A DNA stretch of 63,999 nucleotides, filler included, from an uncultured Methanosarcinales archaeon (lineage in GTDB: Archaea; Nanobdellota; Nanobdellia; Woesearchaeales; CAYXTQ01), in assembly GCA_964608065.1 (NCBI GenBank). It is 4 parts of 4 records of this genome, joined end to end, with 100 filler letters (N's around TTAATTAATTAA, not from the genome) between each part and the next. Parts side by side here need not be neighbours in the genome. Positions count along the whole stretch, not along the records: positions 21,265 to 41,871 come from CAZSMA010000015.1; 3 more parts are not named here. The stretch is one strand, 5' to 3'. Each line of letters starts with the position of its first letter. Positions within the stretch are counted from its first letter, which is position 1. A program made the translations under genes and the position numbers. The notes under the pieces are model-generated. The model had not been told where the DNA came from. It saw nothing but the letters and a program-made list of their open reading frames with translations, and made no database searches. Shown here piece after piece: positions 2,958 to 62,473 of this stretch.

Positions 2958-4148
2958 TTAACCCTCTATCACTTTCTTAATAATCTCAACCCCTTTTTTT
3001 ATATTTTCTTTTGAAGTAGCATAACTTAATCTTATGTATTCATTAGTTTCATTTTTGTCTTTTTTTCCAAAGTGTATATCTGCCAGAACTGCTACTCCTT
3101 TGTCTAACAACAGCTTTCTTAGGTCTTCTGATGTTTTTAGCCCTAATTTTTTACATGCTTCTGTAACATTTGGATAAACATAGAATGCTCCACCAGGAGT
3201 TAAGCATTTAACTCCTTTGATATCATTCAGTAAGTTAACTACTAATTCTCTTCTTTCTTTAAATTCATTGTACATTTCATCTGCTTTTTCCTGTGACCCT
3301 GATAAAGCTTCAATTGTAGCATATTGGTTAAAATGCACAGGACAACTGTCTGTGTTTATCATCCATTGAGAAAAGAATGGAGCTAATTTCTTATTTGCAA
3401 CATAGCCTATTCTCCAACCAGTCATTGCATATGTTTTGCTTAAACCATCAGAGATTATTGTTCTTTCATACATATCTGGTAGTGCAGCAATGCTTTTGAA
3501 CTCTCCATCATAAACTAATCTTGAATACACTTCATCTGCATATACCCAGAAGTCATGCTCTAAAGCAAGGTCTCTTACAGCTTTCATATCATCTTCTGTA
3601 AGCATACCTCCTGTTGGGTTCTGAGGATAGTTTAAAATCAATAATTTTGTTTTATTGCTTACTAATTTTTTTAAATCTTCAACATCGAAGCTGAAGTTTT
3701 TTCTCTCTACTAATGGCAAAGGAACTGGCTTAGCGCCATTTGCAATTACACTAGATTCATAGATTGGAAATCCTGGATTTGGATATATGACTTCGTCTCC
3801 TTTTCCATAGTCTGTTGTTGCAAGAACTGTATAGTTTATGAATGGCTTTGCACCATTACCCATAACAACATCTTCTGAATCAACTTTTACTTTTCTTGTA
3901 TCAGAAAAATATTTTGCAATAGCTTCTCTAACTTCAGGAATACCTGGTGCTGCTGTATATCCTGTTTTCCCTCCTTCAATAGCTTTGATTGCAGCTTGTT
4001 TTATATTTTCAGGTGTGTCGAAATCAGGTTGTCCAATACAGAAACTTACAATTTCATTACCTTCTGCTATTTTTTTATTGACTTCTGCAAGAACAACAAA
4101 AGCGTTTTCTGTGCCTAAATTTTGAGTTCTATCTGATATATTTGCCAT
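2958..4148 (-). CDS. PLP-dependent class I/II aminotransferase (aspartate aminotransferase family)
   Basis: IGQPDFDTP, NYPQNPTG, DEVY, SKTYAMTGWRIGY, IRLSYA; likely start MANIS at 4148 after a GGGGG SD. Confidence 0.9.
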   Translation of the reverse strand: MANISDRTQNLGTENAFVVLAEVNKKIAEGNEIVSFCIGQPDFDTPENIKQAAIKAIEGGKTGYTAAPGIPEVREAIAKYFSDTRKVKVDSEDVVMGNGAKPFINYTVLATTDYGKGDEVIYPNPGFPIYESSVIANGAKPVPLPLVERKNFSFDVEDLKKLVSNKTKLLILNYPQNPTGGMLTEDDMKAVRDLALEHDFWVYADEVYSRLVYDGEFKSIAALPDMYERTIISDGLSKTYAMTGWRIGYVANKKLAPFFSQWMINTDSCPVHFNQYATIEALSGSQEKADEMYNEFKERRELVVNLLNDIKGVKCLTPGGAFYVYPNVTEACKKLGLKTSEDLRKLLLDKGVAVLADIHFGKKDKNETNEYIRLSYATSKENIKKGVEIIKKVIEG

Positions 4149-10110: not shown

Positions 10111-10120
10111 NNNNNNNNNN

Positions 10121-13556: not shown

Positions 13557-13699
13557 NNNNNNNNNNNNNNNNNNNNNNNNNNNNNNNNNNNNNNNNNNNN
13601 NNNNNNNNNNNNNNNNNNNNNNNNNNNNNNNNNNNNNNNNNNNNNNNNNNNNNNNNAAAAGAGGTGTTCTTTAAAACCTGCCCGCTTATCTAATCAATA

Positions 13700-21164: not shown

Positions 21165-21264
21165 NNNNNNNNNNNNNNNNNNNNNNNNNNNNNNNNNNNN
21201 NNNNNNNNTTAATTAATTAANNNNNNNNNNNNNNNNNNNNNNNNNNNNNNNNNNNNNNNNNNNN
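21165..21264. other. Artificial contig linker
   Basis: N run containing TTAATTAATTAA (stops in all frames); the same linker occurs at 41872-41971 and 62374-62473. Confidence 0.95.
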
Positions 21265-21277
21265 ACAAGTTGAATTT

Positions 21278-21303
21278 TACTACACCCCTTTTATAGTTCA
21301 AAT
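21278..21303 (-). repeat. Repeat B, partial copy
   Basis: TACTACACCCCTTTTATAGTTCAAAT, 25/26 identical to the core of 22403-22472. Confidence 0.8.
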
Positions 21304-21375
21304 CCTTTTTTAATTTTTAAAAAAAATTTTTAAAAAAAAAAAAAAAAAAGCTTCGAAGAGCCTAAAAAAAAAATC

Positions 21376-21669
21376 CTATGGTTTTATTCTGTATTTTACT
21401 TGGTTCTTTAATATTACTGCAGACTTTACTTTTTCCAATTCATCTATTGCGGGTTCATAATCCCTGCTTATGCTATATAAAGTTTTTTCAAGTAATTCCA
21501 GTGTTTCTAATGGTAATCTATAATAGGGAGCAGCTCCACTCCCATTTACAGACTCCAACCAATTTTTAACTAAAGTGTATTGTTTTTCCTGTTGTATCTT
21601 TATTTTTTTTGTATCTTCTACTATACTCTCTAATTCTTTAATTTTTTCTCTATCTACTAGTTTGTACAT
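21376..21669 (-). CDS. Hypothetical helical protein
   Basis: 97-aa ORF with strong GGGGAGGT SD. Confidence 0.65.
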   Translation of the reverse strand: MYKLVDREKIKELESIVEDTKKIKIQQEKQYTLVKNWLESVNGSGAAPYYRLPLETLELLEKTLYSISRDYEPAIDELEKVKSAVILKNQVKYRIKP

Positions 21670-21791
21670 TTTTCATTACCTCCCCATTTCTGGATAGTTG
21701 TATTGCTTAAGGAGTTTAACCTAAAAGCAACCATAGAAAAAAAAAAAAACTATAGAGAAATATCTCTAATGATAAAAACAATGAATTAGAA

Positions 21792-21854
21792 TTAACAACA
21801 ACAAGAAGTAAGAACTAATAAAATCTCTTCTTTTGAAATTTTATTTTGTCTCAT
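21792..21854 (-). CDS. Putative leaderless uORF MRQNKISKEEILLVLTSCCC
   Basis: TTTAAATA box about 25 nt upstream of the ATG; followed by a TAGAGA-TATT-TCTCTA hairpin and a T run. Confidence 0.4.
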   Translation of the reverse strand: MRQNKISKEEILLVLTSCCC

Positions 21855-21896
21855 GATATAGTTAGAATTATGTCATGATATTTAAATATTTCTACT

Positions 21897-21938
21897 AAGC
21901 ACCATAAATAACTTAAACAAAAGTAGTCCTCCTATTTA
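21897..21938. repeat. Repeat A copy 1 (short, internally deleted)
   Basis: AAGCACCATAAA-TAACTTAAACAAA-AGTAGTCCTCCTATTTA. Confidence 0.8.
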
Positions 21939-21954
21939 AATAAAAAAAAAAAAC

Positions 21955-22392
21955 TTATTGGTTTCGATTATATTCGTACATTTGTTCAAGAATCCAATCC
22001 CCATATTGTTGGTGAAAGTATTTCCAATGAGAATCCACTAATCTATTTATTGTACGCATATTGTCATTTCTGATAAAAGCAACACTTTTTCTCTTATCTT
22101 CTCTTGGTTCTTCTAAAAATTTCTCATCATTTGAAAAATCATAATCATCTAAAGCTGTATTGAAAGAATCGATCTCAGTTATTTCTGATTTAAAATTTAG
22201 TGGGGGATTTCGACCTATAAGTAGGGCAGAAAAAGAAGCCTTAACTATGTACCTCTTGGTTTCTTTCCCATTAGATGTGTAGATTAACAATACAGGTGCT
22301 TTTCCAAAATTGAGATATTTAATTTCAGCACCTAGTTTATCCTCTAAGTCACTTACAAATTCAGGTTGTTCTGGGTATTCTGTAATTTTCAT
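21955..22392 (-). CDS. Hypothetical protein
   Basis: ORF; likely start MKITEY at 22392 after a GGAGGG SD at the edge of repeat B. Confidence 0.65.
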   Translation of the reverse strand: MKITEYPEQPEFVSDLEDKLGAEIKYLNFGKAPVLLIYTSNGKETKRYIVKASFSALLIGRNPPLNFKSEITEIDSFNTALDDYDFSNDEKFLEEPREDKRKSVAFIRNDNMRTINRLVDSHWKYFHQQYGDWILEQMYEYNRNQ

Positions 22393-22402
22393 ATTAAACC
22401 CT

Positions 22403-22472
22403 CCAAGAACTCTTGGAGTATATACTATACCCCTTTTATAGTTCAAATTCATTTATGGTTTATAAATTTAAT
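22403..22472 (-). repeat. Repeat B: 70-bp promoter/leader unit
   Basis: Identical to 30862-30931; contains TTTATAAA, palindrome AGTATATACT and hairpin CCAAGA-AC-TCTTGG. Confidence 0.95.
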
Positions 22473-22560
22473 TGTTTTCTCTATTGAGGTCTGTAATTGG
22501 ATTGAAAAGTGTGATAATTTATAGCAATTTATTTATATTTCAAAAGCTTATTCTATTAAC

Positions 22561-22677
22561 ATGGACAAAAAAACAGAAAAGAAGCTAACCAAGATATTAC
22601 AAATAGGTGTTCATGTACTTGCAATAACCTGTATATTGATAGCACTATATGGAGTTTATACCACATGGGGCAAATGA
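22561..22677 (+). CDS. 38-aa single-TM micropeptide
   Basis: MDKKTEKKLTKILQIGVHVLAITCILIALYGVYTTWGK; ATGA overlap with the next ORF. Confidence 0.55.
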   Translation: MDKKTEKKLTKILQIGVHVLAITCILIALYGVYTTWGK

Positions 22678-22778
22678 AAATATCAAAAAAACTAATAGAT
22701 CAGATTAAGATTGTAATGATCATCATATGTGTTGCAGCAATCCTCTTTGCAGTTTTGAAAACGTTTGGTGTAATCTGA
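22674..22778 (+). CDS. 34-aa single-TM micropeptide
   Basis: MKISKKLIDQIKIVMIIICVAAILFAVLKTFGVI; TGATG overlap with the next ORF. Confidence 0.55.
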   Translation: MKISKKLIDQIKIVMIIICVAAILFAVLKTFGVI

Positions 22779-22874
22779 TGAACAAAAAAAAAGACGCATT
22801 AGCAATTCTGTTTTTGACGATTGCAATAGCAGCATTTGTATTGTTTTTTTTTTAAAATATTTGGTGTGATTTAG
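22778..22874 (+). CDS. Single-TM micropeptide paralog with a frameshift in a T10 run
   Basis: MNKKKDALAILFLTIAIAAFVLFFF then, with one T fewer, KIFGVI-stop, matching KTFGVI of the preceding ORF. Confidence 0.5.
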
Positions 22875-22892
22875 TAAACTTTTTAAGTCGTG

Positions 22893-22914
22893 GAGTATTC
22901 TCGAGTTATAGGTG
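22893..22914 (+). repeat. Repeat C: shared 22-bp leader/SD
   Basis: GAGTATTCTCGAGTTATAGGTG identical at 23174-23195. Confidence 0.9.
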
Positions 22915-22920
22915 TTTTGA

Positions 22921-23148
22921 ATGTCATACGCTGAATGGTATCGTGCAATTGCTATGCAAAATTTTGGATTTGAGGATAGAATAAATGAACGGCCTCCAAC
23001 TAAAGATGGTTATTGTGAGCATTCTTTTGATTATAAATTTGGTTACAATGGATTTAAAATGCAAGGTACGTTTGACTTAATACATAATTCTAGCCCATTA
23101 ATAAAAGAAAAGGAAATTGACAAACTTCTAATTCCATTAATAAAATAA
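22921..23148 (+). CDS. Small hypothetical protein, tandem paralog 1
   Basis: Shares H..YK(F/W)GYNGFK..GTFDL and I.KLL.PL with 23202-23450. Confidence 0.75.
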   Translation: MSYAEWYRAIAMQNFGFEDRINERPPTKDGYCEHSFDYKFGYNGFKMQGTFDLIHNSSPLIKEKEIDKLLIPLIK

Positions 23149-23201
23149 AAAAAAGCAACACTTTTATAGTCGTGAGTATTCTCGAGTTATAGGTGAAATA
23201 A

Positions 23202-23450
23202 ATGCCAGGTGGAGGATATAGAGAAGAGGACCAAATAGCAAGAGGGGCGTATCTAGATAGCATTAATGGAAGAGACCCTAAAGATGATAGTAATAACCAT
23301 ACATGGTCATATAAATGGGGTTATAACGGCTTTAAACTCACAGGAACATTTGATTTAACACCCGGTGGTACGATGACAAGTACATTAACAAAAAAAGAGG
23401 AAGATATTAACAAACTTCTAATGCCTTTATTAGATTTAAAAAATAAGTAA
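23202..23450 (+). CDS. Small hypothetical protein, tandem paralog 2
   Basis: HTWSYKWGYNGFKLTGTFDL...DINKLLMPLL; AGGTGA SD. Confidence 0.75.
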   Translation: MPGGGYREEDQIARGAYLDSINGRDPKDDSNNHTWSYKWGYNGFKLTGTFDLTPGGTMTSTLTKKEEDINKLLMPLLDLKNK

Positions 23451-23453
23451 CAC

Positions 23454-23561
23454 TTTTCCTTCTTCCACTACAGGGAGTAAGCACCATAAACAACAACTTA
23501 AACAAACGTAATAAGTAGTCCCCCTATTTATTCTCATACTGATTTTTTTTTTACTGAATTC
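23454..23561. repeat. Repeat A copy 2
   Basis: ..CCACTACAGGGAGTAAGCACCATAAACAACAACTTAAACAAACGTAATAAGTAGTCCCCCTATTTA..TTTACTGAATTC. Confidence 0.92.
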
Positions 23562-23641
23562 TAATTATTGATAAAAGCCCTAATAAAGTTTGGGATGTTT
23601 ATTTATTGATTTAAAAAAAACCAAAAAGTTTATATATAACT

Positions 23642-23660
23642 TTAGATTAGAGTAATCTAA
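23642..23660. promoter_or_regulatory. Candidate autoregulatory operator of the first HTH-MNT/HEPN operon
   Basis: TTAGATTA-GAG-TAATCTAA perfect 8-bp inverted repeat between the TATA box and the start codon. Confidence 0.6.
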
Positions 23661-23677
23661 CTAAAGGTTAGAGTAAG

Positions 23678-24271
23678 ATGGAAATCAGCGAGAATGGAAA
23701 AAAGGCTTTGAAGATTATCTTCACAGATTTTTTAACTAATTATAACTCCTATAACATAAAAGACAGGATTGGGGTTAGTGATGTTGGAAGCTTAAAACTA
23801 TTAAGAAGTTTAAAAGAAAAAAATATTTTAACAAGCGAAAAAATGGGAAATGCTATTTTTTACAAGACAAATCTTGAAAACCAATATGCATTAAAATTGC
23901 TAGAACTGATTTTTCTAGATCATAGCAACTTGTCCAATTATTTAAAAGGCTGGATTCAAGATTTAAAGTCTTTTGCTCCTCTAGCCAAATCAATATTGTT
24001 ATTTGGTTCTATCTTAAAGAAAGGGAAGAATGCTAAGGACGTAGATGTTTGTTTTATATTGGATGCTAAAGATTATGTTCCAGTACAAAGGCAGATTCAT
24101 GAGATGGACAGAAAAAACCGTTTAAAAATACACCCCCTTCTTTTGACAAAGAAAAAGTTTGAAGAAAAACTAAGGGAAAAAGACAAGCCTTTGGTAGACA
24201 TGGCCAAAAATTGCGTGGTAGTTTATGGCCAAGAATTATTTGTTAAGGTGTTAAAGAATGTCCAAAGCTAA
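23678..24271 (+). CDS. wHTH-fused minimal nucleotidyltransferase (MNT antitoxin)
   Basis: N-terminal wHTH; LFGS..KG...DVDV nucleotidyltransferase motif. Confidence 0.85.
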   Translation: MEISENGKKALKIIFTDFLTNYNSYNIKDRIGVSDVGSLKLLRSLKEKNILTSEKMGNAIFYKTNLENQYALKLLELIFLDHSNLSNYLKGWIQDLKSFAPLAKSILLFGSILKKGKNAKDVDVCFILDAKDYVPVQRQIHEMDRKNRLKIHPLLLTKKKFEEKLREKDKPLVDMAKNCVVVYGQELFVKVLKNVQS

Positions 24272-24764
24272 GAATATGGTAAAATGGTGTCTGAATAAGG
24301 CAAAGAAAGAGTTAGAAAAAGATCAAAAGCATAGAGGCTTAATACAAATAAAACCCGATGATAAATTAGCACAGGATTTTATTGCAAAAGCAGAGCACAA
24401 TCTTGAAGTTTTTATGGTGAATAAAGAGCATAGATTTTATGATTGGACAATAAATATAGGCTTTTACGTTATGTATCATTGCTGCTTAGCCATTATTACT
24501 AAATTTGGCTATGAAACTAGAAATCAGGAATGTACTTTAGCATTAATTGAAAGTTTAGTTGAAGATAAAAAGATAGATGAGGATTTTAAAAGATACATTG
24601 AAGCCATAAAGTCCAGTACTAAAGAAGAGGAAAAACAAATCATGCCTATGCGTGAAACGTATCAATATACTCCAGTCATAGACATTGATGTGAAGAAAGT
24701 TGAAGAACTTCTTGAAATCTGTCAGGATATGATTAAGGATACTAAAGGCATTGTTCAGGGTTAG
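24258..24764 (+). CDS. HEPN domain protein (toxin)
   Basis: KAEHNL, FYVMYH, RNQEC, RETYQY; overlaps the MNT gene. Confidence 0.8.
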   Translation: MSKAKNMVKWCLNKAKKELEKDQKHRGLIQIKPDDKLAQDFIAKAEHNLEVFMVNKEHRFYDWTINIGFYVMYHCCLAIITKFGYETRNQECTLALIESLVEDKKIDEDFKRYIEAIKSSTKEEEKQIMPMRETYQYTPVIDIDVKKVEELLEICQDMIKDTKGIVQG

Positions 24765-25010
24765 TTGATAGAGAGAATTAGAAGAAATAAACATCTATGT
24801 ATTCAAAAACCCAACAAAAAAAGAAAATGCAACAAATAGATAAGAATGTAAAATTAGTAAATAAATTAATCAAATTCTGTATAAAGCATTTTAATGATTA
24901 TGAGCATGATTTTAAAGTATACTAACAATCTACTGCTTTTATTTTCTTTAAAAAAAAAAGTAATTTTTTTATACTTTAAAATAACCTAATTCTATATAGG
25001 GGTGGTTTAA

Positions 25011-25331
25011 ATGAGTAGAATAACTACTGATGAAGATGGTGATAGGGTGATTCTTCATGATGATGGAAGTTATGAAGAAGTAGACAAGGGTGGTTGTTTC
25101 ATAGCAACAGCTGCTTATGGAACGCCTTTTGCTGAAGAAATCAATATTTTGAGAGAATGGAGGGATAGCTTTTTAACGAAACATACTTTTGGAAGAATTT
25201 TTGTTAATTTTTACTATAAAAGCAGCCCACCAATTGCTGATTTTATAAGAAATAAGAAAAGTCTGAGAGCTATTGTTAGATTTTTGTTAAATCCCATTGC
25301 TAAATTATTAAAAAGTATTTACAAAAAATAA
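25011..25331 (+). CDS. CFI-box-CTERM domain protein
   Basis: GCFIATAAYG...ILREWRD...FVNFYYKSSPPIA. Confidence 0.85.
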   Translation: MSRITTDEDGDRVILHDDGSYEEVDKGGCFIATAAYGTPFAEEINILREWRDSFLTKHTFGRIFVNFYYKSSPPIADFIRNKKSLRAIVRFLLNPIAKLLKSIYKK

Positions 25332-25332
25332 G

Positions 25333-25722
25333 GTGACTCGAATGAATAAAAAAAAGTTTTTTTTGGGATTAGCAATTCTATTAATATTTGGTTTCTTATT
25401 TTATGTTTCTTTATCTAGCCTCAATCATGTAAGGTCTAAATGTGAAGCATGCACATTCGGATATGAAATAAATACTGCTAGAATTATCAAAGAGTTAAAT
25501 CAGGATTTAGATGATCTCCCTATCATAGAAGAAGTTTGTAAGTCTGATTGTGAAAATTTTGAACTCTTTAGAAATCTTACGTTAGGCTTCGGATTAATAA
25601 CTTTAATTGGTTTTTTCTTATTTGTATCCGGTATATTTTCAAAAAGTAAATATAATCAAATTAAAGAAGATGAAAAAGCAAGGTTAGAAGCAAGAAATGA
25701 ATTTGAGAGAAAAAAAAAATAA
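25333..25722 (+). CDS. Two-TM membrane protein with a Cys-containing external loop
   Basis: Two hydrophobic helices flanking CEAC...C...C. Confidence 0.6.
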   Translation: MTRMNKKKFFLGLAILLIFGFLFYVSLSSLNHVRSKCEACTFGYEINTARIIKELNQDLDDLPIIEEVCKSDCENFELFRNLTLGFGLITLIGFFLFVSGIFSKSKYNQIKEDEKARLEARNEFERKKK

Positions 25723-25724
25723 CA

Positions 25725-26939
25725 TCATTCCATCAACTTTAACAAATCTTCTAACAAAACAGGTTTATAATCAATTACCTCTACACTTACATTAATTGTT
25801 TTATTCTCTTTATGAATTATAGGAAATTCAGGCTTATTATTGTGATGATGTCCATGAATTATCCACCCTTTCCAGTCTTTAGGAGCATCTTCTGGGTCAT
25901 GTACAAGAAAGAACTTCTTACCTTTGTAGGTTATTATAAGCTTATCAAAGACATTAGTTTTCCTTGAGATACTTTCATGATTACCTTTAATAAAATAAAT
26001 ATTACCATTAAGTTTGCTTAGCCAGTGATCTGTACTTTTGCTTCCTCTACCAAATGCCATGTCCCCTAAGAAAAAAACAATATCATTCTTTTTAACTGTA
26101 CTATTCCATTTATCTAACATACTTTCATTCATTTCGTTTGCAGATTTGAATGGCCTTTTACAGTATTTGATTATATTAGTATGGTCAAAATGATTATCAC
26201 TAATAAAGAATATTTTTCTTTCCCTAAACCTATTAAGAATCTTACTAATAAATCCTTCTTTAATATCATCTATGTCTATCTCTTCAGTAGGTATAATTGG
26301 TTGGATATGCCTATCACTAACATTATTTTTACCACCATCAAAATATTTCTTCAGCCTATCAAATGTTTGCGTAAGTATTGCTCTACTTTTTGCTTCATTT
26401 CTATTAAATAACCTCTTTAACATAAAATCATACTCATATAGTATTTTAGAATTTTTTATAATAGCAGCTCTTAGTAAAATATGTTTGTAATTAGGCTTTG
26501 GTTTTTTACTGATATACTTCTTAACAGCCTTAAACTTGCTTGGACTTAATTTCATAGCAATAGTTGCGTGAAAATGAAACTTCCTTTCTAAATCATATGA
26601 TTTAAGATAACAATAAGGTTTGATTGCTCTTGCTAACTCCCATCTAAATTTATCTAGTTGATCGCTTGGGTTAATATCAATATAGACTACTCTATTATCT
26701 TCAAAAGTGTTATAACCTACAACCTTAAAACCCATAACACCGTGCTTCTTACATAACCCTTTAAAATCAGATACAAGATTCCTTTGATTCCTTGTATTAA
26801 ATGGACCTGCAAGTGATACGTGGGGTACAGGCCTATGTGGTGGTCTGATACGGAACTTTTTATTAATTTCCCATATTAAACTTTTAGCTTCCCCTTTTGC
26901 TTTTCCAAAAAATCTGAATTCAATTAGATAATGAGTCAT
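25725..26939 (-). CDS. 2H phosphoesterase fused to a calcineurin-like metallophosphoesterase
   Basis: N-half: PHVSL and FHATI (two HxS/T motifs); C-half: SDNHFDH, LGDM, GNHE, HGHHH. Confidence 0.85.
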   Translation of the reverse strand: MTHYLIEFRFFGKAKGEAKSLIWEINKKFRIRPPHRPVPHVSLAGPFNTRNQRNLVSDFKGLCKKHGVMGFKVVGYNTFEDNRVVYIDINPSDQLDKFRWELARAIKPYCYLKSYDLERKFHFHATIAMKLSPSKFKAVKKYISKKPKPNYKHILLRAAIIKNSKILYEYDFMLKRLFNRNEAKSRAILTQTFDRLKKYFDGGKNNVSDRHIQPIIPTEEIDIDDIKEGFISKILNRFRERKIFFISDNHFDHTNIIKYCKRPFKSANEMNESMLDKWNSTVKKNDIVFFLGDMAFGRGSKSTDHWLSKLNGNIYFIKGNHESISRKTNVFDKLIITYKGKKFFLVHDPEDAPKDWKGWIIHGHHHNNKPEFPIIHKENKTINVSVEVIDYKPVLLEDLLKLME

Positions 26940-26944
26940 TTTAA

Positions 26945-28741
26945 TTAAATTTCTCCTTCCTGCTTCTCAGCACCATCCCAAAATGCCATTCCTTCATCTC
27001 CTGTAGTACAAGGTCCAGCACCTAAGCCATAGGAATCTGTATTTGCTCCTAAAAAAACACAAGCCCCCTTATAACAAGCAGCAACCCCCAACGTATGAGT
27101 AGGGTATAGGAGATTATATCTATGGCCCCTACTACCCATCCAACTATCAACCTGTGCCTTTGAATCAGCATAAGAAGCATAATCTACTTCGTCTCCATAA
27201 TATCCATACATAACTGCACCAGCATTTTCCGCTATTGTATAACCACCAAGATTATAATCTGCTTTGAAATCCTTTAAACATTTACCATCGGGAGTCACAT
27301 GGTCAAAATATTTTCTATCATACATATCTTTACATCTAAATATTGCTAACTCATATAAATCATCACTCCATTTTAACTCACTCCTATCATTCTGCTTTCT
27401 TAACTCATTAATATATTCAAGAGTTTCTAGAGCTTCTGCCTTGTTACTATCAATACAATCACCTTTCCATGGTTTATATCCTCTATCACACCCACAATGT
27501 TTAGAATCCTTGATTAAGTTTCCTGCACTACAAAAATAAGGTTTTTGTTTTGAGCATTCCCCATAAATAGTGCCATCAGAACATCTTTTAATCTTTTCGC
27601 ATTTTTTTCCAACCTTTTTATAATCTGCAAGACAACCGCATAAATCAGAATTATCAATTAATTCTCCTCCAACACATTGTTTTGGTTTATTTGTTGAACA
27701 TTCAGGTTCTAAAGTACCATCCCTACATTTTACTATTTTAATACATTCATTTTTATATAATCTCTCGCCATTTGGACATCCGCATTTTATAGGGTTTTTT
27801 ACCAGTCCGGATAAAGAACAATAATACAGTTTATCTTCTGAACATTCTTCAAGTTTTGTTCCATCTTCACACTTTAATTCTTTACCTAATAAATTGAAAA
27901 CAAAAGACTTAATTGTAGGGTATCTAGGTTTAGTAACATTTTTTACAGTTTTTTCCATATATTCGGTTATTTTTTTCTTTGTTACAATTCCTTCTGGATT
28001 TCTCTCACTAAGCTCAATTTTTTTTGGCTCTAAGAGAAGTGTTTTGTATTTTCTTCTAAAAATTCCCCTAATTTTATACACTTCTTTTGTTGTACCTTTT
28101 TTTGGAAATAGACTTCTATAACTATAACCCATTTTAATCAAATCAATAGTATTATCATAGTCATCAGAAATACTTTCAACATATACCCCTGCAGTTTCAG
28201 TACCCTTTATATATCTCTTTAAGAAAGCTTTTAATTCTATTTCTTCACCTTCTATATCATAAATATTTTCTAAAAATTCTTTAAAAGATATTTTACTAGA
28301 AAGTGTTTCATTATAAAATATGGTTTTTATTGCTGGTTCTTCTTCAGTTACTTCTTCCTTAACCTCACTTAAAGTTCCATAAAGAACAGCTATTATAATC
28401 AATACAAGAAAGATTAATAGTTTGATAACAGAAGATAATTTTTTCTTTTTTCTGCGCGGTTTTTTAGCACGTACATCTTTGATTGGTATGGTTACATATT
28501 CTCTTCTGTGTTTATCATGAACTTTATGATAATGTTTTTTCCTTCTTCTTTTATGATAACTCCCTCTCACTTCTCTTTTTTCAATTCTTTTTGGTCTTGT
28601 GAATGTTCTTACAAATTTAGGTTTTTTAACCCATTCCCTATACGCTTCCTTAAATGATTTAGTACTATCAGTATCTTTTAATTTATCCTTTGTATCATAT
28701 ACAAACTCTTTGTTGCCCCCTGTATGAACTCTGACTTTCAT
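26945..28741 (-). CDS. Membrane-anchored CAP/SCP-domain protein with Cys-rich repeats
   Basis: TM helix; three CxDGTxxxECSxxK repeats; C-terminal INELR, YFDH, AEN, WMGSRGHRYNLL; likely start MKVRV at 28741. Confidence 0.8.
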   Translation of the reverse strand: MKVRVHTGGNKEFVYDTKDKLKDTDSTKSFKEAYREWVKKPKFVRTFTRPKRIEKREVRGSYHKRRRKKHYHKVHDKHRREYVTIPIKDVRAKKPRRKKKKLSSVIKLLIFLVLIIIAVLYGTLSEVKEEVTEEEPAIKTIFYNETLSSKISFKEFLENIYDIEGEEIELKAFLKRYIKGTETAGVYVESISDDYDNTIDLIKMGYSYRSLFPKKGTTKEVYKIRGIFRRKYKTLLLEPKKIELSERNPEGIVTKKKITEYMEKTVKNVTKPRYPTIKSFVFNLLGKELKCEDGTKLEECSEDKLYYCSLSGLVKNPIKCGCPNGERLYKNECIKIVKCRDGTLEPECSTNKPKQCVGGELIDNSDLCGCLADYKKVGKKCEKIKRCSDGTIYGECSKQKPYFCSAGNLIKDSKHCGCDRGYKPWKGDCIDSNKAEALETLEYINELRKQNDRSELKWSDDLYELAIFRCKDMYDRKYFDHVTPDGKCLKDFKADYNLGGYTIAENAGAVMYGYYGDEVDYASYADSKAQVDSWMGSRGHRYNLLYPTHTLGVAACYKGACVFLGANTDSYGLGAGPCTTGDEGMAFWDGAEKQEGEI

Positions 28742-28782
28742 AATTACTATAAGAATAAAACGTAATATAAAAAATTTGCTAA

Positions 28783-28888
28783 TTTTCCTCCATCCACCAC
28801 AGGGGGTGGGGACCATAAACAACAACTTAAACAAATGTAATAGGTAGTCCCCCTATTTATCCTCTATTGATTTTTTTTTACTGAATTC
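28783..28888. repeat. Repeat A copy 3
   Basis: ..CCACCACAGGGGGTGGGGACCATAAACAACAACTTAAACAAATGTAATAGGTAGTCCCCCTATTTA..TTTACTGAATTC. Confidence 0.92.
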
Positions 28889-28913
28889 AATTAATGATTT
28901 TAAAAACCAAAAG

Positions 28914-28972
28914 ATATATAAACTAAAGTTAATATCCATTAACTATGGTAAACATATATAAACTAAAGTTAA
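28914..28972 (+). promoter_or_regulatory. Candidate operator region of the second HTH-MNT/HEPN operon
   Basis: 19-bp direct repeat ATATATAAACTAAAGTTAA at 28914 and 28954; inverted repeat AGTTAAT-ATCC-ATTAACT at 28927-28944. Confidence 0.6.
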
Positions 28973-29487
28973 CAATCCTGCAGCAAAAGATATTAAGACT
29001 TTTATTTATAAAAGCAGGAAAATCTCTAAACCAGCGGCAAATATCGAAGATTCTTGAGGTTTCCCAGCCCGCAGTTATGAAATCCCTACCAAAATTAGAG
29101 AAAGAAAGATTAATTATGCTGAATAAGGATTCAGGGAGGTGGGCTGTTGAGTTAAACAGGAACAATCACAAAGCTATGCAATTAAAAAAAGTAGATAACT
29201 TAAAACTGATTTATGAATCAGAATTAGCAGATTTTCTTGAAAAAGAATTCGCAGGAGCAACAATTATCTTTTTCGGAAGCTATTCAAGAGGTGATGATAC
29301 AGTTAATTCAGATATAGATATAGCTGTTATCGGAAGAAAAGACAAAATAATTGATTTAGAAAAATTTGAGAAAATTCTGGAAAGAAAAATAAACATCAAT
29401 TTTTATGATTCATTTAACTGCATACATAAAAACCTAAAGGAAAATTTGTTTAATGGAATTGTCCTGTACGGGGGGGTAGATCTATGA
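28945..29487 (+). CDS. wHTH-fused minimal nucleotidyltransferase (MNT antitoxin)
   Basis: HTH RQISKILEVSQPAVMKSL; FFGSYSRGDD..SDIDIAV. Confidence 0.9.
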   Translation: MVNIYKLKLTILQQKILRLLFIKAGKSLNQRQISKILEVSQPAVMKSLPKLEKERLIMLNKDSGRWAVELNRNNHKAMQLKKVDNLKLIYESELADFLEKEFAGATIIFFGSYSRGDDTVNSDIDIAVIGRKDKIIDLEKFEKILERKININFYDSFNCIHKNLKENLFNGIVLYGGVDL

Positions 29488-29930
29488 AAGCAATAAGATC
29501 TTTTGAAGAATTTGTAAGGCAAGGTATTGTAAAAAAGCAAAGCCCTGACAAATCTAGGGCAGAATTTTTAATCAAAGAGGCTGAGCAAAGCTATGCTTAT
29601 TTACTTGAGTTAATTGACAAGATTGGAATTAACAAAAATAATACAAATAGTCACGTAAAAAACTGTTATGATATTCTTACTGAATTAATAAGGGCAAGAC
29701 TATTGTTAGAAGGGTTTAATGCGTCTGGACAAGGTGCCCATGAAGCAGAAGTATCCTATCTGAGAACTCTTAGCTTTAGTGAAAAAGAAGTCCAATTTGC
29801 CGACCAGATGAGATATTTTAGGAATGGAATGCTGTACTATGGAACAATCCTAGACAAGGAATATGCAAAAAAGGTTTTTGAATTTACAAAAAGAATATAC
29901 ACTAAATTAAAAAATATGGTAAAATACTGA
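29484..29930 (+). CDS. HEPN domain protein (toxin)
   Basis: YDILTELIRA, GAHEA, RYFRNGMLYYG; ATGA overlap with the MNT gene. Confidence 0.8.
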   Translation: MKAIRSFEEFVRQGIVKKQSPDKSRAEFLIKEAEQSYAYLLELIDKIGINKNNTNSHVKNCYDILTELIRARLLLEGFNASGQGAHEAEVSYLRTLSFSEKEVQFADQMRYFRNGMLYYGTILDKEYAKKVFEFTKRIYTKLKNMVKY

Positions 29931-29940
29931 AAAGACGTCT

Positions 29941-30042
29941 CCCACCAGGCCATAGCCACCACAAACAACAACCTAAACAAACGTAATAAGCAGTCCCCCT
30001 ATTTAATCTCTGTTCCCTATTGAATTTGTTTTTACTGAATTC
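29941..30042. repeat. Repeat A copy 4
   Basis: ..CACCACAAACAACAACCTAAACAAACGTAATAAGCAGTCCCCCTATTTA..TTTACTGAATTC. Confidence 0.9.
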
Positions 30043-30083
30043 TGTAAATGGTATAAAGAAGTGGAAGGATTGTAGGTTTTTAT

Positions 30084-30851
30084 TCACTTAATTATAGATT
30101 CCAAAGGAACTTGATTCTCATAAAGTTTTTTCAAAACAGAATTATATTTTATTAAATCCTCTCTTTTAAATTGTGTTGACTTAGTTGGAAATATACAATC
30201 CTCTATCCCCTTAATTTCAAAACTTTCAGATAAAAGATACGCCAGTTCAGCTAAACATCCTTGCTTTACCCAGTAAGTCCATTCTCCTGCAACTCTTATC
30301 TCTTTTACATCGCTTTTTTTTAAGAACGAAAACAGCAAGTCAACCCTTTGTTTTTTTGAGCCGTTCCTCGTATTGAGGTTATCTACTAACGGAATGCCCT
30401 CTCCATTCTCAGTCACCAGAATCATAGAAGAATCAAATGGCCTCAATGCTTCTCTTGGTATACTGCTATCTTCATAATCTACTTTTTCTGCAGCAAATAA
30501 TGTTAGCTCATTGGATCCTCTTAAATGATGAACAAGTCTTGAAATATTATTTAAATAAGGTGCATATTTTCCAAATCTCTTAACATTAGCAACAGCATCT
30601 TGGACTATTTCACCTTTGTGATGATCACCATAACCAGCGTGCCCAATAAAATAACAATAGCCTTCAGTAGGAACGCCCTTTTGAAGTAATTTGTTTGAAG
30701 CAACAAAAAGTTGGTTAGTGCTATATTCATAATCTGGAACCTTTTGTACTATCCTAGGTATGCCAACAAGATTTGAAAAATCTAAAGAAGTACTTGCTGT
30801 TGCTATACCTACTCTCTTCAAAAACTGTCTTCTACTAATGTTTTTTTGCAT
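30084..30851 (-). CDS. Twin-arginine-motif protein, possible isochorismatase-like fold
   Basis: SRRQFLK N-terminus; VKEIRVAGE....GCL...IEDCIFP resembles a cysteine hydrolase C-terminus; likely start at 30851. Confidence 0.55.
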   Translation of the reverse strand: MQKNISRRQFLKRVGIATASTSLDFSNLVGIPRIVQKVPDYEYSTNQLFVASNKLLQKGVPTEGYCYFIGHAGYGDHHKGEIVQDAVANVKRFGKYAPYLNNISRLVHHLRGSNELTLFAAEKVDYEDSSIPREALRPFDSSMILVTENGEGIPLVDNLNTRNGSKKQRVDLLFSFLKKSDVKEIRVAGEWTYWVKQGCLAELAYLLSESFEIKGIEDCIFPTKSTQFKREDLIKYNSVLKKLYENQVPLESIIK

Positions 30852-30861
30852 TTTAAATTCC

Positions 30862-30931
30862 CCAAGAACTCTTGGAGTATATACTATACCCCTTTTATAG
30901 TTCAAATTCATTTATGGTTTATAAATTTAAT
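30862..30931 (-). repeat. Repeat B: 70-bp promoter/leader unit
   Basis: Identical to 22403-22472. Confidence 0.95.
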
Positions 30932-30935
30932 GGAT

Positions 30936-32153
30936 TTATTCATACCTAAGCGCATCCACAGGTTTAAGCTTTGAAGCTTGTTTTGAAGGTAAATATCCTG
31001 AGATAGCTCCTACTAAGAATGCGAATACTAAGCAGCCAATTGTTAACCATAAAGGAAAAGCAGGCCTTAACATTGCCAGTCCAGCTGACCTTGCAATTGT
31101 TTCTCCCATTTTTGCGATTAAATAACCTAAACCAATTCCTGCAGCGCCACCTAATAAGCCCAGTAAACCTGATTCAAAGATAAAAATAAATAAAATATGT
31201 TTATTTTTTGCACCAATAGATTTCATTACTCCAATTTCTTTAGTTCTTTCTAATATAGAAGTGTACATTGTATTCATTATATTGACAGCAGCTACAACTA
31301 CTGAAATTAAAGCAATTAAAACAAGCACCCCATTTAATATATTAATTATATTTGTGAATGTTTCCATTACATCTTCAAAACTTTGTACAATGAAATCTTC
31401 TTCTCCTTCTTTCAGACCTCTGTGTTTTCTAAATTTTTCTTTTATCCTATCTGCTAATTCTGAAGGGTTTTGATCATGGGCAACTCTGAGATAAATATAT
31501 CCATATTCTTCTGTATCAAATATTTCTTTATATCCTTCTAGGGATAAATAAACATTTGAATCATCTCCTGGATTTCCAATTTCGTCATAAAATCCTATAA
31601 CCTCTACTTTTATATCATTTATTTCAATTTTATCTCCTACAGAAATTGCTTTTTTAAACATTCTATTTGGAATAGTATAAGAATACCCTAAATTTGCTTT
31701 TAGTCCATCTCCTTTTTTTAAAGGCCTCCCTTCCATAACCCCTATTCCGCCAAACATTTCTTCTATTAATTTTTTTTCACTGCTATCTGTAGAAAAACCC
31801 GCGACAAAAGGATATTTTTCTTTATATTCTTTGTATTTTATTTTTCCTGATGCCATCATCATTCCACTTGCTTCATCAACACCTTTTGTTTTTCTAATAA
31901 AATCCAAGTCATCTTCTGTAAAGGCTATGTTGCTTGTGCCAATTGCAGTCATATAGTCCCCAGGCATCATCATTATTTTGTCTGTTCCCATCTCCTCTCC
32001 AAACTGGTTCATATAAGAATTAATCCCCTGGCCAAAACTGATTAAAGCGAAGATTGCAGTTATACCTACTAAAATAGAAAGTATAGTAAGAAAACTTCTA
32101 GTTTTTCTCTGCAACATATTTGAAATCGAGTATTTTGCTATGTCTTTTATCAT
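30936..32153 (-). CDS. ABC transporter permease (MacB/FtsX family)
   Basis: RSFLTILSILVGI, IMNTMYTSILERTKEIGVMKSIGA, PVDALRYE. Confidence 0.93.
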   Translation of the reverse strand: MIKDIAKYSISNMLQRKTRSFLTILSILVGITAIFALISFGQGINSYMNQFGEEMGTDKIMMMPGDYMTAIGTSNIAFTEDDLDFIRKTKGVDEASGMMMASGKIKYKEYKEKYPFVAGFSTDSSEKKLIEEMFGGIGVMEGRPLKKGDGLKANLGYSYTIPNRMFKKAISVGDKIEINDIKVEVIGFYDEIGNPGDDSNVYLSLEGYKEIFDTEEYGYIYLRVAHDQNPSELADRIKEKFRKHRGLKEGEEDFIVQSFEDVMETFTNIINILNGVLVLIALISVVVAAVNIMNTMYTSILERTKEIGVMKSIGAKNKHILFIFIFESGLLGLLGGAAGIGLGYLIAKMGETIARSAGLAMLRPAFPLWLTIGCLVFAFLVGAISGYLPSKQASKLKPVDALRYE

Positions 32154-33373
32154 TTACTATACCTCAAAGCATCTACAGGGTTTAGTTTTGAGGCTCTAAT
32201 AGCTGGTAATGTGCCGAAAAATGAGCCAATAACAAATGAAAAAAATATAGCTCCTAAAAATAAAAATGGTGAGATGCGTGCTGATATTAAGTCAGAGCCT
32301 AAAACCATTTTTCCAATAAATGCTAAACCAGTAGCTCCAAGGAAACCAAGTATAGCTCCTATTAAACCACCAACACTGCCTAAAAATCCAGATTCAATAA
32401 AGAACAATGAGAAAATTGTATTATTTTTAGCTCCAATAGATTTCATTATTCCAATTTCTTTTGTTCTTTCAACAACAGCAGTATACATTGTGTTCATTAT
32501 TCCAATGCCACCAACTAATAAGGAGATACCTGCAATTATATAGACAAATATTTGGACAGCCAGTAAGGTTGAATTAACTGTTTCTAGAACAGATTGGGGT
32601 GTTTCAACAGAGAAATCTTCCTCTCCTTCTTTTACATCTCTAACTTTTCTTAGTTCTTTTTCAATATTTTCTTTAATTTTATTCACATCAGCATCTTGGT
32701 TGAATTGTACAGCTATTATATCATAATCATCACCTTGTCTGTCAACTAAGTCACGAAGGTCATCTTCATTCATAAATACAGCTCCATCAACCTGGAAGTT
32801 ACCTTTTTTCTCCATTATACCAACCACTGTAAATTCTTTACTCAGTATCTCGACTTTAGAACCTGGAATTATGGCTTTTCCAAAAGGATTATCATCTTGA
32901 CCAAACATATAGCCTAAAAGAACAAGGCCTTTATCACCATCTTTTAACAACCTACCTTTCTGAGCTTCCATGTTCATTAAATGTTCCATTAGTTCCCTAC
33001 CCTTACCATCCGGAATACTTACAGCATAACCAAATGTAGCTTTTCTATTAAAAACAAGTTTTCCTGGTTCCATAATTCTTCCAGCTACGTTTTCTATTCC
33101 ACTAACACTTTTTATTCTATCTAGTTCTTTGTCTGTTAAAGGGTCAATAACACCTGTTCCTGGTGGTCCAAAACCTCCAGTGGCAGTTACAGCTATAATA
33201 TCTGTTCCAAGAAAACCAAATTGAGATGTTATAGCATGCCTTAACCCTTCTCCTAAACCAATTAAAGAAACAACAGCAGCTATTCCTATAAAGATGCCAA
33301 GCATAGTCAGCCAACTTCTTAACCTTCTGTTCTTAATATTATTCAAAGCAAAAAGTAAGTATTCTTTGATCAT
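32150..33373 (-). CDS. ABC transporter permease (MacB/FtsX family)
   Basis: RSWLTMLGIFIGI, GIMNTMYTAVVERTKEIG, PVDALRY. Confidence 0.93.
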   Translation of the reverse strand: MIKEYLLFALNNIKNRRLRSWLTMLGIFIGIAAVVSLIGLGEGLRHAITSQFGFLGTDIIAVTATGGFGPPGTGVIDPLTDKELDRIKSVSGIENVAGRIMEPGKLVFNRKATFGYAVSIPDGKGRELMEHLMNMEAQKGRLLKDGDKGLVLLGYMFGQDDNPFGKAIIPGSKVEILSKEFTVVGIMEKKGNFQVDGAVFMNEDDLRDLVDRQGDDYDIIAVQFNQDADVNKIKENIEKELRKVRDVKEGEEDFSVETPQSVLETVNSTLLAVQIFVYIIAGISLLVGGIGIMNTMYTAVVERTKEIGIMKSIGAKNNTIFSLFFIESGFLGSVGGLIGAILGFLGATGLAFIGKMVLGSDLISARISPFLFLGAIFFSFVIGSFFGTLPAIRASKLNPVDALRYSK

Positions 33374-41823: not shown

Positions 41824-41971
41824 TTCAAATTAAATAGGAAGTAAGGAATATATAAATCTTTTTAAAACTATNNNNNNNNNNNNNNNNNNNNNNNNNNNNN
41901 NNNNNNNNNNNNNNNTTAATTAATTAANNNNNNNNNNNNNNNNNNNNNNNNNNNNNNNNNNNNNNNNNNNN

Positions 41972-62373: not shown

Positions 62374-62473
62374 NNNNNNNNNNNNNNNNNNNNNNNNNNN
62401 NNNNNNNNNNNNNNNNNTTAATTAATTAANNNNNNNNNNNNNNNNNNNNNNNNNNNNNNNNNNNNNNNNNNNN

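Follow-up and report, generated by a model that had tools for sequence, protein, structure and literature searches.

A candidate MITE-like intergenic repeat and a putative re-used promoter/leader sequence at the edge of a variable island in a Woesearchaeota-type archaeon

Three families of non-coding repeats, here called A, B and C, punctuate an accessory region of a small archaeal genome (assembly GCA_964608065.1, from here: G000). The region occupies positions 21265 to 30931 of the 63,999-nt stretch of DNA that was analysed (from here: the window) and forms the beginning of contig C15. A preliminary description had seen in it a new archaeal gene-cassette system, in which genes are captured or exchanged between conserved flanking repeats. 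We report that repeat A comes and goes between core genes of a congener without any change in gene content, that repeat B stands directly 5′ of unrelated genes in the orientation of a promoter and that repeat C probably belongs to one operon. With moderate confidence, we read the whole as a miniature inverted-repeat transposable element (MITE)-like sequence (A) and a re-used promoter/leader (B) within a hypervariable island. The analysis draws on the anatomy of the repeats, the distribution of their copies, their presence or absence at orthologous sites and cargo differences between relatives.

For repeat A, the source genome was compared with a congener of the same genus (G001, 91% complete); all compared genomes are fragmented metagenome-assembled genomes and the open reading frames (ORFs) throughout are mechanical calls. 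The source genome carries seven A copies (four on C15, two on C38, one on C6), while at least 21 matches on 19 contigs were found in the congener. All copies assessed in these two genomes are intergenic (28/28), and their orientation is not linked to that of the adjoining genes: the upstream gene shares the strand of A in 13 cases and lies opposite in 13, and for the downstream gene the figures are 12 and 13. Both genes flanking each A copy of the congener were searched in the source genome, where seven of the pairs are adjacent. At every one of these seven syntenic sites A is present in the congener and absent from the source genome, in which the gap is ~100-310 nt shorter and the gene content identical. 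As A is missing from these sites without a difference in genes, it moves without cargo, which is the pattern of a mobile or insertable element and not that of a cassette boundary. Identical A copies were found beside different genes (loci L044, L058 and L088). At six loci, A follows a 343-aa DDE_Tnp_1 transposase at a distance of 48-52 nt and lies ~60 nt inside the shared end of an IS4/IS5-like insertion sequence. DDE_Tnp_1 genes exist in both G000 and G001, along with one Y1 transposase gene in each, and neither kind was found on any contig of these two genomes that carries A. We infer that A transposes. It had been described as bounding captured cargo; instead, it is solitary between core genes in the congener, absent at the seven orthologous sites and present inside an insertion sequence.

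The four local copies, all on the plus strand, had been counted correctly in the preliminary description: repeat search and blastn returned three long copies and one truncated copy. A1 (approximately 21897-21940, repeat family D5) is truncated and decayed and lies 15 nt downstream of a 145-aa gene. A2 (23437-23562) has a degenerate G-box and lies 116 nt upstream of the first of two nucleotidyltransferase (NTase) genes of the helix-turn-helix (HTH)-MNT type. A3 (28766-28906) is the only intact local copy, with both boxes (GGGGGTGGGGACC ... GTAGTCCCCC) followed by a ACTGAATTC tail. A4 (29912-30060), again with a degenerate G-box, overlaps the last codons of a HEPN-like gene, and the stop codon of a 255-aa gene is 24 nt away. 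Hence three of the four copies are decayed, A2 and A4 being without the conserved G-box and A1 truncated. Together with the missing link between A orientation and neighbouring genes, this speaks against the exchange units that had been proposed. A2 and A3 are 88% identical over 108 nt (E 3e-21), A2 and A4 92.6% over 54 nt. The NTase genes behind A2 and A3 share only 25% amino acid identity and their HEPN partners are not detectably similar, from which it follows that the repeats are far younger than the genes. A joint duplication of A with the NTase/HEPN pairs was ruled out by the same figures.

As a family, A is non-coding and ~75-170 nt long. Its consensus reads CAAGGGGGTGGGGA[A/C]CAT, followed by ~30-37 variable nt that often include AAGAGC, and then GTA[T/G]TCCCCCT; the 5′ core box is AAGGGGGTGGGGA[A/C]CAT, and in the genus of G000 and G001 a ACTGAATTC tail follows the 3′ box. 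A long form of 170-220 nt with an extra 5′ half (TTAGGGAGGG...GCCCTCCACCCACC) was found in 13 metagenome loci from other lineages. One 170-nt representative (L047) has 27-nt inverted termini with 78% complementarity and another (L042) a 12-nt outer inverted repeat, while comparable ends were not found in L041 or L090. Single A sequences fold no better than shuffled ones (z +0.4 to +0.6), and the alignment fold gave only the invariant G/C stem (GGGGAA/TTCCCC), with 6-8 bp enclosing ~37 nt and one A-U to C-G exchange between lineages. A candidate GCUCU/AGAGC helix is 60% paired with weak covariation. The possibility that A is coding sequence was ruled out, as the copies share no common frame.

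The preliminary description had asked where else the repeats occur. A was found across several Woesearchaeota/Nanoarchaeia genomes, and B has further copies in G000 only. In addition to the two genomes above, G043 contributed 18 A matches, spread over 17 contigs, and G041 at least 25; nothing was found in 38 other genomes of the same order, two of which gave only 24-nt matches in the AT-rich tail of the query. A pattern search that fixes the two outer of the three A boxes yielded 66 metagenome loci, of which ~59 were judged real; seven loci of high G+C content (L039, L062, L065, L066, L075, L092 and L093) were dropped as chance before counts were made. The same pattern occurs at 39 loci in genome_contigs, 32 of them in archaeal records mostly titled Woesearchaeota/Nanoarchaeia, the seven bacterial records being judged chance by their titles only. 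The single match in viral_contigs, in a 206-kb contig, is probably due to chance. No Rfam family matched A at gathering or relaxed thresholds and nothing relevant was found in the literature searched; the family is apparently undescribed.

Beside several A copies of the congener, and inside one (L024), there is a second repeat family of short perfect hairpins (GAAAATCC..GGATTTTC and AAATTGATTTTGGTCAG..CTGACCAAAATCAATTT). It is found in L024 (contig C66 of G001) at ~1150-1225, in L011 at ~3460-3530, and also in L017 and L022.

Repeat B has a different character. Its copies B1 (22386-22478) and B2 (30845-30937), both on the minus strand, are 92% identical over 93 nt, including 70 nt at 100% (blastn, E 2e-34). 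A partial copy, B0 (21278-21331, minus strand), is cut by the contig end 14 nt from the start of C15, so that the gene it would drive is unassembled; the two copies and one partial copy of the preliminary description are thereby recovered. Read on the gene strand, B consists of a TATA-like TTTATAAA, ~24 nt further on an invariant AAAAGGGG box, then a hairpin (CTCCAAGA..TCTTGGAG), which overlaps a GGAGG ribosome-binding site with its 3′ arm, and finally the ATG. The pairing is kept across copies (86% of cells paired, compared to 32-60% in slid controls), and three of the eight pairs carry compensatory changes, being altered on both sides. With nhmmer, eight B copies were found in the source genome, three each on C15 and C19 and one each on C38 and C115. 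Since three of these eight adjoin a contig end or a scaffold gap, the genome may in truth contain more. Searches of G001 and of 39 further genomes of the same order did not recover B, the matches there being short AT-rich stretches, and metagenome_contigs gave no match.

In all seven assessable cases, B lies directly 5′ of an ORF in promoter orientation. The genes behind it encode five orphans (145, 255, 308, 400 and 126 aa), a caspase-like peptidase and an enolase-family protein. All seven are singletons in G000, the enolase-family gene being a second, divergent copy. Reading through B creates artefactual long ORFs that begin MNLNYKRGIVYTPRVLG; the true start codons are ATGs further inside, and a twin-arginine-type signal follows one of these. 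That B is a flanking recombination unit, as had been proposed, is not borne out by its place as a promoter/leader before every assessable gene. The B-gene-A order on the minus strand does hold for both orphan genes of the region, whose proteins are unrelated (BLASTP E = 16). We consider it somewhat better than an even chance that B is a promoter plus 5′ leader re-used before at least seven unrelated accessory genes in one species. Judged from its sequence, B would be an active promoter with a regulatory hairpin, and the position of this hairpin over the ribosome-binding site suggests that the B-driven genes are probably under one common control.

The enolase-family gene behind B (L101 3438-4700, corresponding to C19 11437-12699) encodes a protein 30% identical to the core enolase (C33 4626-5882) and 36% to the enolase of G001. 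An empty-site comparison for B at this gene failed, since the gene is a second divergent copy without an orthologue in G001. The B copy before it (L101 3365-3385) reads AAAAGGGGTGGGGAG where A has AAGGGGGTGGGGAAC; this common G-box could be chance or a protein-binding motif common to both.

Repeat C consists of two 23-nt copies on the plus strand (28910-28932 and 28950-28972; ATATATAAACTAAAGTTAA core; repeat family D14), and its two occurrences had been noted before. The copies are 96% identical and 40 nt apart, with the start of the second NTase gene between them. They carry ATATATAAAC plus CTAAAGTTAA. A similar doubled motif precedes the homologue of this gene in G001, and a CTTTAG/CTAAAG palindrome related to repeat C is found upstream of the first NTase gene. 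This arrangement suggests that repeat C is a TATA box/operator in an autoregulated promoter of an NTase/HEPN operon.

The following course of events would fit these data. A would insert by itself into intergenic DNA, probably moved in trans, and then decay. B would have spread within the species before unrelated accessory genes and placed them under one common control, and repeat C would serve one NTase/HEPN operon as promoter/operator. That direct A repeats promote homologous recombination, and with it the loss or exchange of modules, would be incidental. If a mobile element and a re-used promoter account for the region, no dedicated cassette-capture system is needed.

Several observations weigh against a mobile element as the explanation of A. 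The short form has only an inverted motif of 6-8 nt (GGGGAAYA), and at most one comparison (L026 versus C33) shows what may be a target-site duplication (TTAA), the other flanks being too AT-rich to call. In the transposase-linked loci A lies between the transposase stop codon and the end of the insertion sequence (...CGGAGATACTG), not at the tip, and no parent insertion sequence with matching ends was found; exact 11-mers gave no inverted repeats at the ends of this insertion sequence. Three B-gene-A units of the same geometry exist in the source genome, the third being on C38. Four divergent NTase/HEPN modules in three organisms have A upstream and three of them also have it downstream. Furthermore, A is co-oriented on 10 of 11 contigs with several copies, and ordinary cut-and-paste MITEs do not predict co-orientation. 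The ten are C15 (4/4 copies) and C38 (2/2) of the source genome, C123 and C90 of G001 (2/2 each), L082 (3/3), C50 (~12 full and 4 partial copies) and C12 (4-5) of G041, C51 of G043, C13 of G042 and C21 of G046 (2/2 each). The exception is C15 of G047, an assembly that may be the same as G001, with one copy per strand.

The array on C50 of G041 spans ~19 kb, with all its copies on one strand; A fills 12 of 17 intergenic gaps there, roughly one per module junction, a further point that a mobile element does not account for. Claims on this array rest on two unpublished genomes, G041 and G046. Its modules include five nucleotidyltransferase-type genes, an Eco57I-type enzyme and many orphans. The array starts where 80% synteny with G046 ends, beside the gene for ribosomal protein L1, and of its modules just two were recovered from G046, where they are placed and ordered differently. 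A unit of A, NTase, HEPN and A recurs in G001 with 60-62% amino acid identity, compared to 73-85% for core genes, and with different neighbours. It is also present in L082, where three co-oriented A copies separate a PD-(D/E)XK gene, a three-gene module, a HEPN-NTase module and TumE; genes homologous to those of the L082 array sit on other G000 contigs, and homology between L082 and G000 begins exactly at an A edge. Co-oriented A copies at module junctions, as in the preliminary description, thus exist here and in other genomes.

Tests aimed at integron-like machinery were negative. Pairs of the attC type (RYYYAAC...GTTRRRY, boxes 50-140 nt apart) number zero on both strands of 21265-30931, compared to 1.8 expected from 200 simulated sequences, in agreement with the earlier statement that no canonical attC exists. 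No tyrosine recombinase, DDE or Y1 transposase was matched on C15, so the reported lack of a transposase also stands. Matches to PF00589 in the source genome are confined to C14, C48 and C40; C15, C38, C19 and the G041 array contigs had none, nor was one detected in G001 despite its at least 21 A copies. The cargo is of mixed strand with one to four genes per module, and solitary A copies have no cargo, a layout that differs from the site-cargo arrangement of integrons.

The one-directional A arrays are not explained by a mobile element, and three other explanations are kept alive. In one of them, A is an att- or attC-like site of a cassette system: circular modules carrying one A would integrate at a chromosomal A by a trans-encoded recombinase or transposase or by homologous recombination, and successive insertions would build the co-oriented arrays. 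We regard this as unlikely. Co-orientation on nearly all multi-copy contigs, the well-filled G041 array with its abrupt start and moved modules, the A-MNT-HEPN-A unit with different neighbours in G000 and G001 and the homology that starts exactly at an A edge in L082 all argue for it. Yet A is solitary between core genes, where it comes and goes without cargo at all seven informative sites; three modules homologous to those of the G041 array adjoin in G046 without A between them; tyrosine recombinase genes are missing from the array contigs and were not detected in G001; cargo orientation is mixed and modules hold one to four genes; the attC motif is lacking and folds do not exceed shuffles; and most local A copies are decayed. 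It is equally doubtful that a cassette system of Woesearchaeota-type DPANN archaea, integrase-less or driven by a recombinase in trans, inserts, excises and swaps modules of one to four defence, toxin-antitoxin or orphan genes at co-oriented A copies, a new kind of site, and so builds arrays of at least 12 cassettes next to core genes. On these terms, A where it is solitary in core DNA would mark relics or landing sites without cargo, a view to which we attach little confidence. Of the cassette system first proposed, the island, its variable cargo and the co-oriented A copies at the junctions remain; B as a unit and the tie between A and cargo do not, and neither a recombinase on the island contigs nor an attC signature was found.

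It is quite unlikely that A is functional intergenic punctuation or a small RNA (a terminator or insulator plus a TATA-like box, or a protein-binding site) kept by selection. The three A boxes (CAAGGGGGTGGGGAACAT, AAGAGC and TATTCCCCCT) do recur across contigs of 27-42% G+C, T-rich or TATA-like sequence follows the C-box, and three divergent contigs have A at one and the same junction, after PyrI and before dihydroorotate dehydrogenase. Among the metagenome loci, A shares its strand with the downstream gene in 33 of 44 cases and with the upstream gene in 29 of 40. However, the pattern used for the search presupposed the two outer boxes, the GCUCU/AGAGC helix is weak, folds are no better than those of shuffled sequence, there is no Rfam match, and in G000 and G001 A has no link to gene strand, is absent at 7/7 orthologous G000 sites and has mostly decayed in the island. 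Very unlikely, in our judgement, is a single-strand element of the IS200/IS605 type (PATE- or REP-like) whose co-orientation stems from insertion into the lagging-strand template. Co-orientation within contigs without a link to gene strand, the lack of clear terminal inverted repeats and target duplications and the one Y1 transposase gene in each of G000 and G001 are what such an element would lead one to expect. The only hairpin, however, is a thermodynamically unremarkable 6-bp stem with a ~37-nt loop; a Y1 transposase gene was not seen beside any A copy, the sole transposase linkage is to a DDE enzyme, and replication direction is not readable from these contigs.

The island in which A and B are found appears, with slightly better than even probability, to be the edge of a hypervariable accessory region of toxin-antitoxin (TA), defence and orphan genes in a small Woesearchaeota-type DPANN archaeon. 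DNA synteny with G001 (77%) spans two core MacB/FtsX-type permease genes (30936-33373, minus strand; 77% nt identity) and ends at 30935, at the MacB stop codon that adjoins B2, which starts right after it. Beyond this point G001 has other genes than G000, and B2 is thereby placed at what looks like the boundary of island and core. Cargo also differs in the comparisons among G000, G001, L082, G041 and G046, and the accessory nature of the region had been correctly recognized. Elsewhere in the source genome, C38 and C19 together carry type I and type IIG restriction-modification, Shedu-like, Mrr, PD-(D/E)XK, ParE and MazE genes; six of the seven A copies and four of the eight B copies cluster on C15 and C38.

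From its left end, the island begins with a 97-aa ORF without a family match (21376-21669, minus strand) and the 145-aa orphan gene behind B1 (21955-22392, minus strand), which starts at the ATG at 22392 and not at the upstream ATG inside B. Two tandem paralogous genes of 75 and 82 aa follow on the plus strand (22921-23450). Both have a WxYKxGYNGFK motif but no family match, and each is preceded by the same GAGTATTCTCGAGTTATAGGTG motif (repeat families D4 and D7). The first NTase/HEPN module (23678-24764, plus strand) consists of an HTH-NTase gene (23678-24271; 197 aa), with a match to PADLOC PDC-M05A and one to DUF6932 below the cut-off, and a HEPN gene (24258-24764; 168 aa; Pfam HEPN) that overlaps it by 14 nt. 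Next come a CFI-box-CTERM protein (106 aa) with a membrane-like ORF (129 aa; 25011-25722, plus strand), a 404-aa fusion of a 2′,5′-RNA-ligase-like (LigT) part and a metallophosphoesterase (25725-26939, minus strand) and a 598-aa protein with a C-terminal CAP (cysteine-rich secretory) domain (26945-28741, minus strand). The second module (28945-29930, plus strand) has an HTH-NTase gene (28945-29487; 180 aa; NTP_transf_2/Polbeta and PDC-M05A) and a HEPN-like partner (29484-29930; 148 aa; PDC-M05B) overlapping by 4 nt. The 255-aa orphan behind B2, with a twin-arginine-type N-terminus (SRRQFLK), completes the island (30084-30851, minus strand). Pfam and PADLOC agree on the two modules reported before, one bracketed by A3 and A4 and the other preceded by A2. 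The further suggestion that TA pairs stabilize the array is pure inference.

The window is not one molecule but joins four contigs of the source assembly (1.40 Mb in 131 contigs): C14 (1-21164), C15 (21265-41871), which bears the island and the repeats, C16 (41972-62373) and C131 (62474-63999). Strandless artificial linkers, each an N run, TTAATTAATTAA and another N run, occupy 21165-21264, 41872-41971 and 62374-62473, and further N runs lie at 10111-10120 and 13557-13656. Because C15 starts at 21265, the island is its first 9.7 kb and begins at a contig end, and because the linkers are artificial, the sequence left of 21265 is not its genomic neighbour. A tyrosine recombinase gene (266-aa frame) at 446-916, on C14, seems near the island only as an artefact of this concatenation. 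The source genome encodes the TATA-binding protein, and the organism is therefore an archaeon. Among the sequencing runs listed, seven DNA runs from groundwater and sediment metagenomes contain the stretch, and no RNA run does.

A tRNA-seeded island was considered and rejected, as there is no tRNA in the arrays examined; none was found in the window, L012, L153 or L082. In L012 (~1910-2400), the intergenic region that aligns with C25 11018-11218 of G000 looks tRNA-like (GTAGCTCAGCCTGG ... GGATTCAAATCC), with large insertions in the G001 version; ARAGORN called no tRNA, and an intron-bearing or split tRNA is conceivable. Elsewhere, NadA (quinolinate synthase) is spread over two adjacent ORFs (L031 1761-2653, corresponding to C6 25760-26652 of G000) of 162 aa (profile positions 1-156) and 132 aa (162-294); the gene may be split, or the sequence may contain a frameshift or an error.

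The genomes of DPANN archaea are tiny, few mobile elements have been recognised in them, and little is known of how their variable islands are built. The present work defines an apparently undescribed family of non-coding elements in several Woesearchaeota/Nanoarchaeia genomes, one-directional at the joints of defence and TA modules, and documents a putative archaeal case of promoter re-use before unrelated accessory genes. If the one-directional arrays truly reflect a role in recombination, they would represent a new cassette mechanism, an archaeal functional analogue of integrons or dif modules. Otherwise, the A family is still of use for marking where islands end, and it causes contigs to break in assemblies of this kind.

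Among known systems, the island resembles integron cassette arrays in its co-oriented short repeats between small accessory modules, its TA cargo and the differences in cargo between relatives. It departs from them in having neither an adjacent integrase nor an attI/Pc arrangement nor an R″/R′ motif, and in its mixed cargo orientation and multi-gene modules; unlike attC, A is also solitary in core intergenic DNA and moves without genes. The dif site of the Xer system is 28 bp long and has two arms with a 6-bp spacer. The pdif modules of Acinetobacter, moved by XerC/XerD, are reported to be often TA pairs with short conserved sites and no adjoining recombinase gene and to be shuffled between replicons (PMC6449649, PMC13141974, PMC12907356). 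The A-bounded modules are similar in being discrete, often TA pairs, with short conserved bounds and without an adjoining recombinase gene, and different in that A has two boxes ~33-37 nt apart, is co-oriented and chromosomal, and is accompanied by no PF00589 match in G001 with its at least 21 copies. The two NTase/HEPN pairs, in which a winged-helix nucleotidyltransferase gene is followed by an overlapping HEPN-type gene, have the layout of HEPN/MNT type VII TA systems and of the PADLOC candidate system PDC-M05. They differ from type VII in that matches to the MntA antitoxin model remain below the cut-off (30.8 versus 60 bits), and their role in toxicity or defence is putative.

Prokaryotic MITEs that carry regulatory signals include the Correia elements of Neisseria, ERIC and REPIN (PMC3575422). 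A is like these in being short, non-coding, multi-copy and intergenic, in its presence or absence at orthologous sites, in its decay and in having a relative inside an insertion sequence, and its TATA-like or T-rich tail could affect neighbouring genes. It is unlike them in that inverted sequence in its short form is limited to a motif of 6-8 nt, clear target duplications were not seen, its relative lies inside and not at the ends of the insertion sequence, and its copies are almost always co-oriented on a contig and can form dense arrays at module junctions. For B, the closest description is that of putative mobile promoters, sequences of at least 50 nt that a single genome carries, with at least 80% identity, in front of non-homologous genes (Nijveen, Matus-Garcia and van Passel 2012, PMC3575422). 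In that survey, which used a window from -150 to -50 and found no sharing between Archaea and Bacteria, the B family itself is not described (PMC3575422). B1 and B2, with 100% identity over 70 nt before genes for unrelated proteins, fall within this definition and may in addition carry a regulatory RNA or an operator. B is set apart from the surveyed promoters by reaching the start codon (~-95 to -1), by its archaeal type of TATA box and B recognition element (BRE) and by the accessory nature of all the genes it drives.

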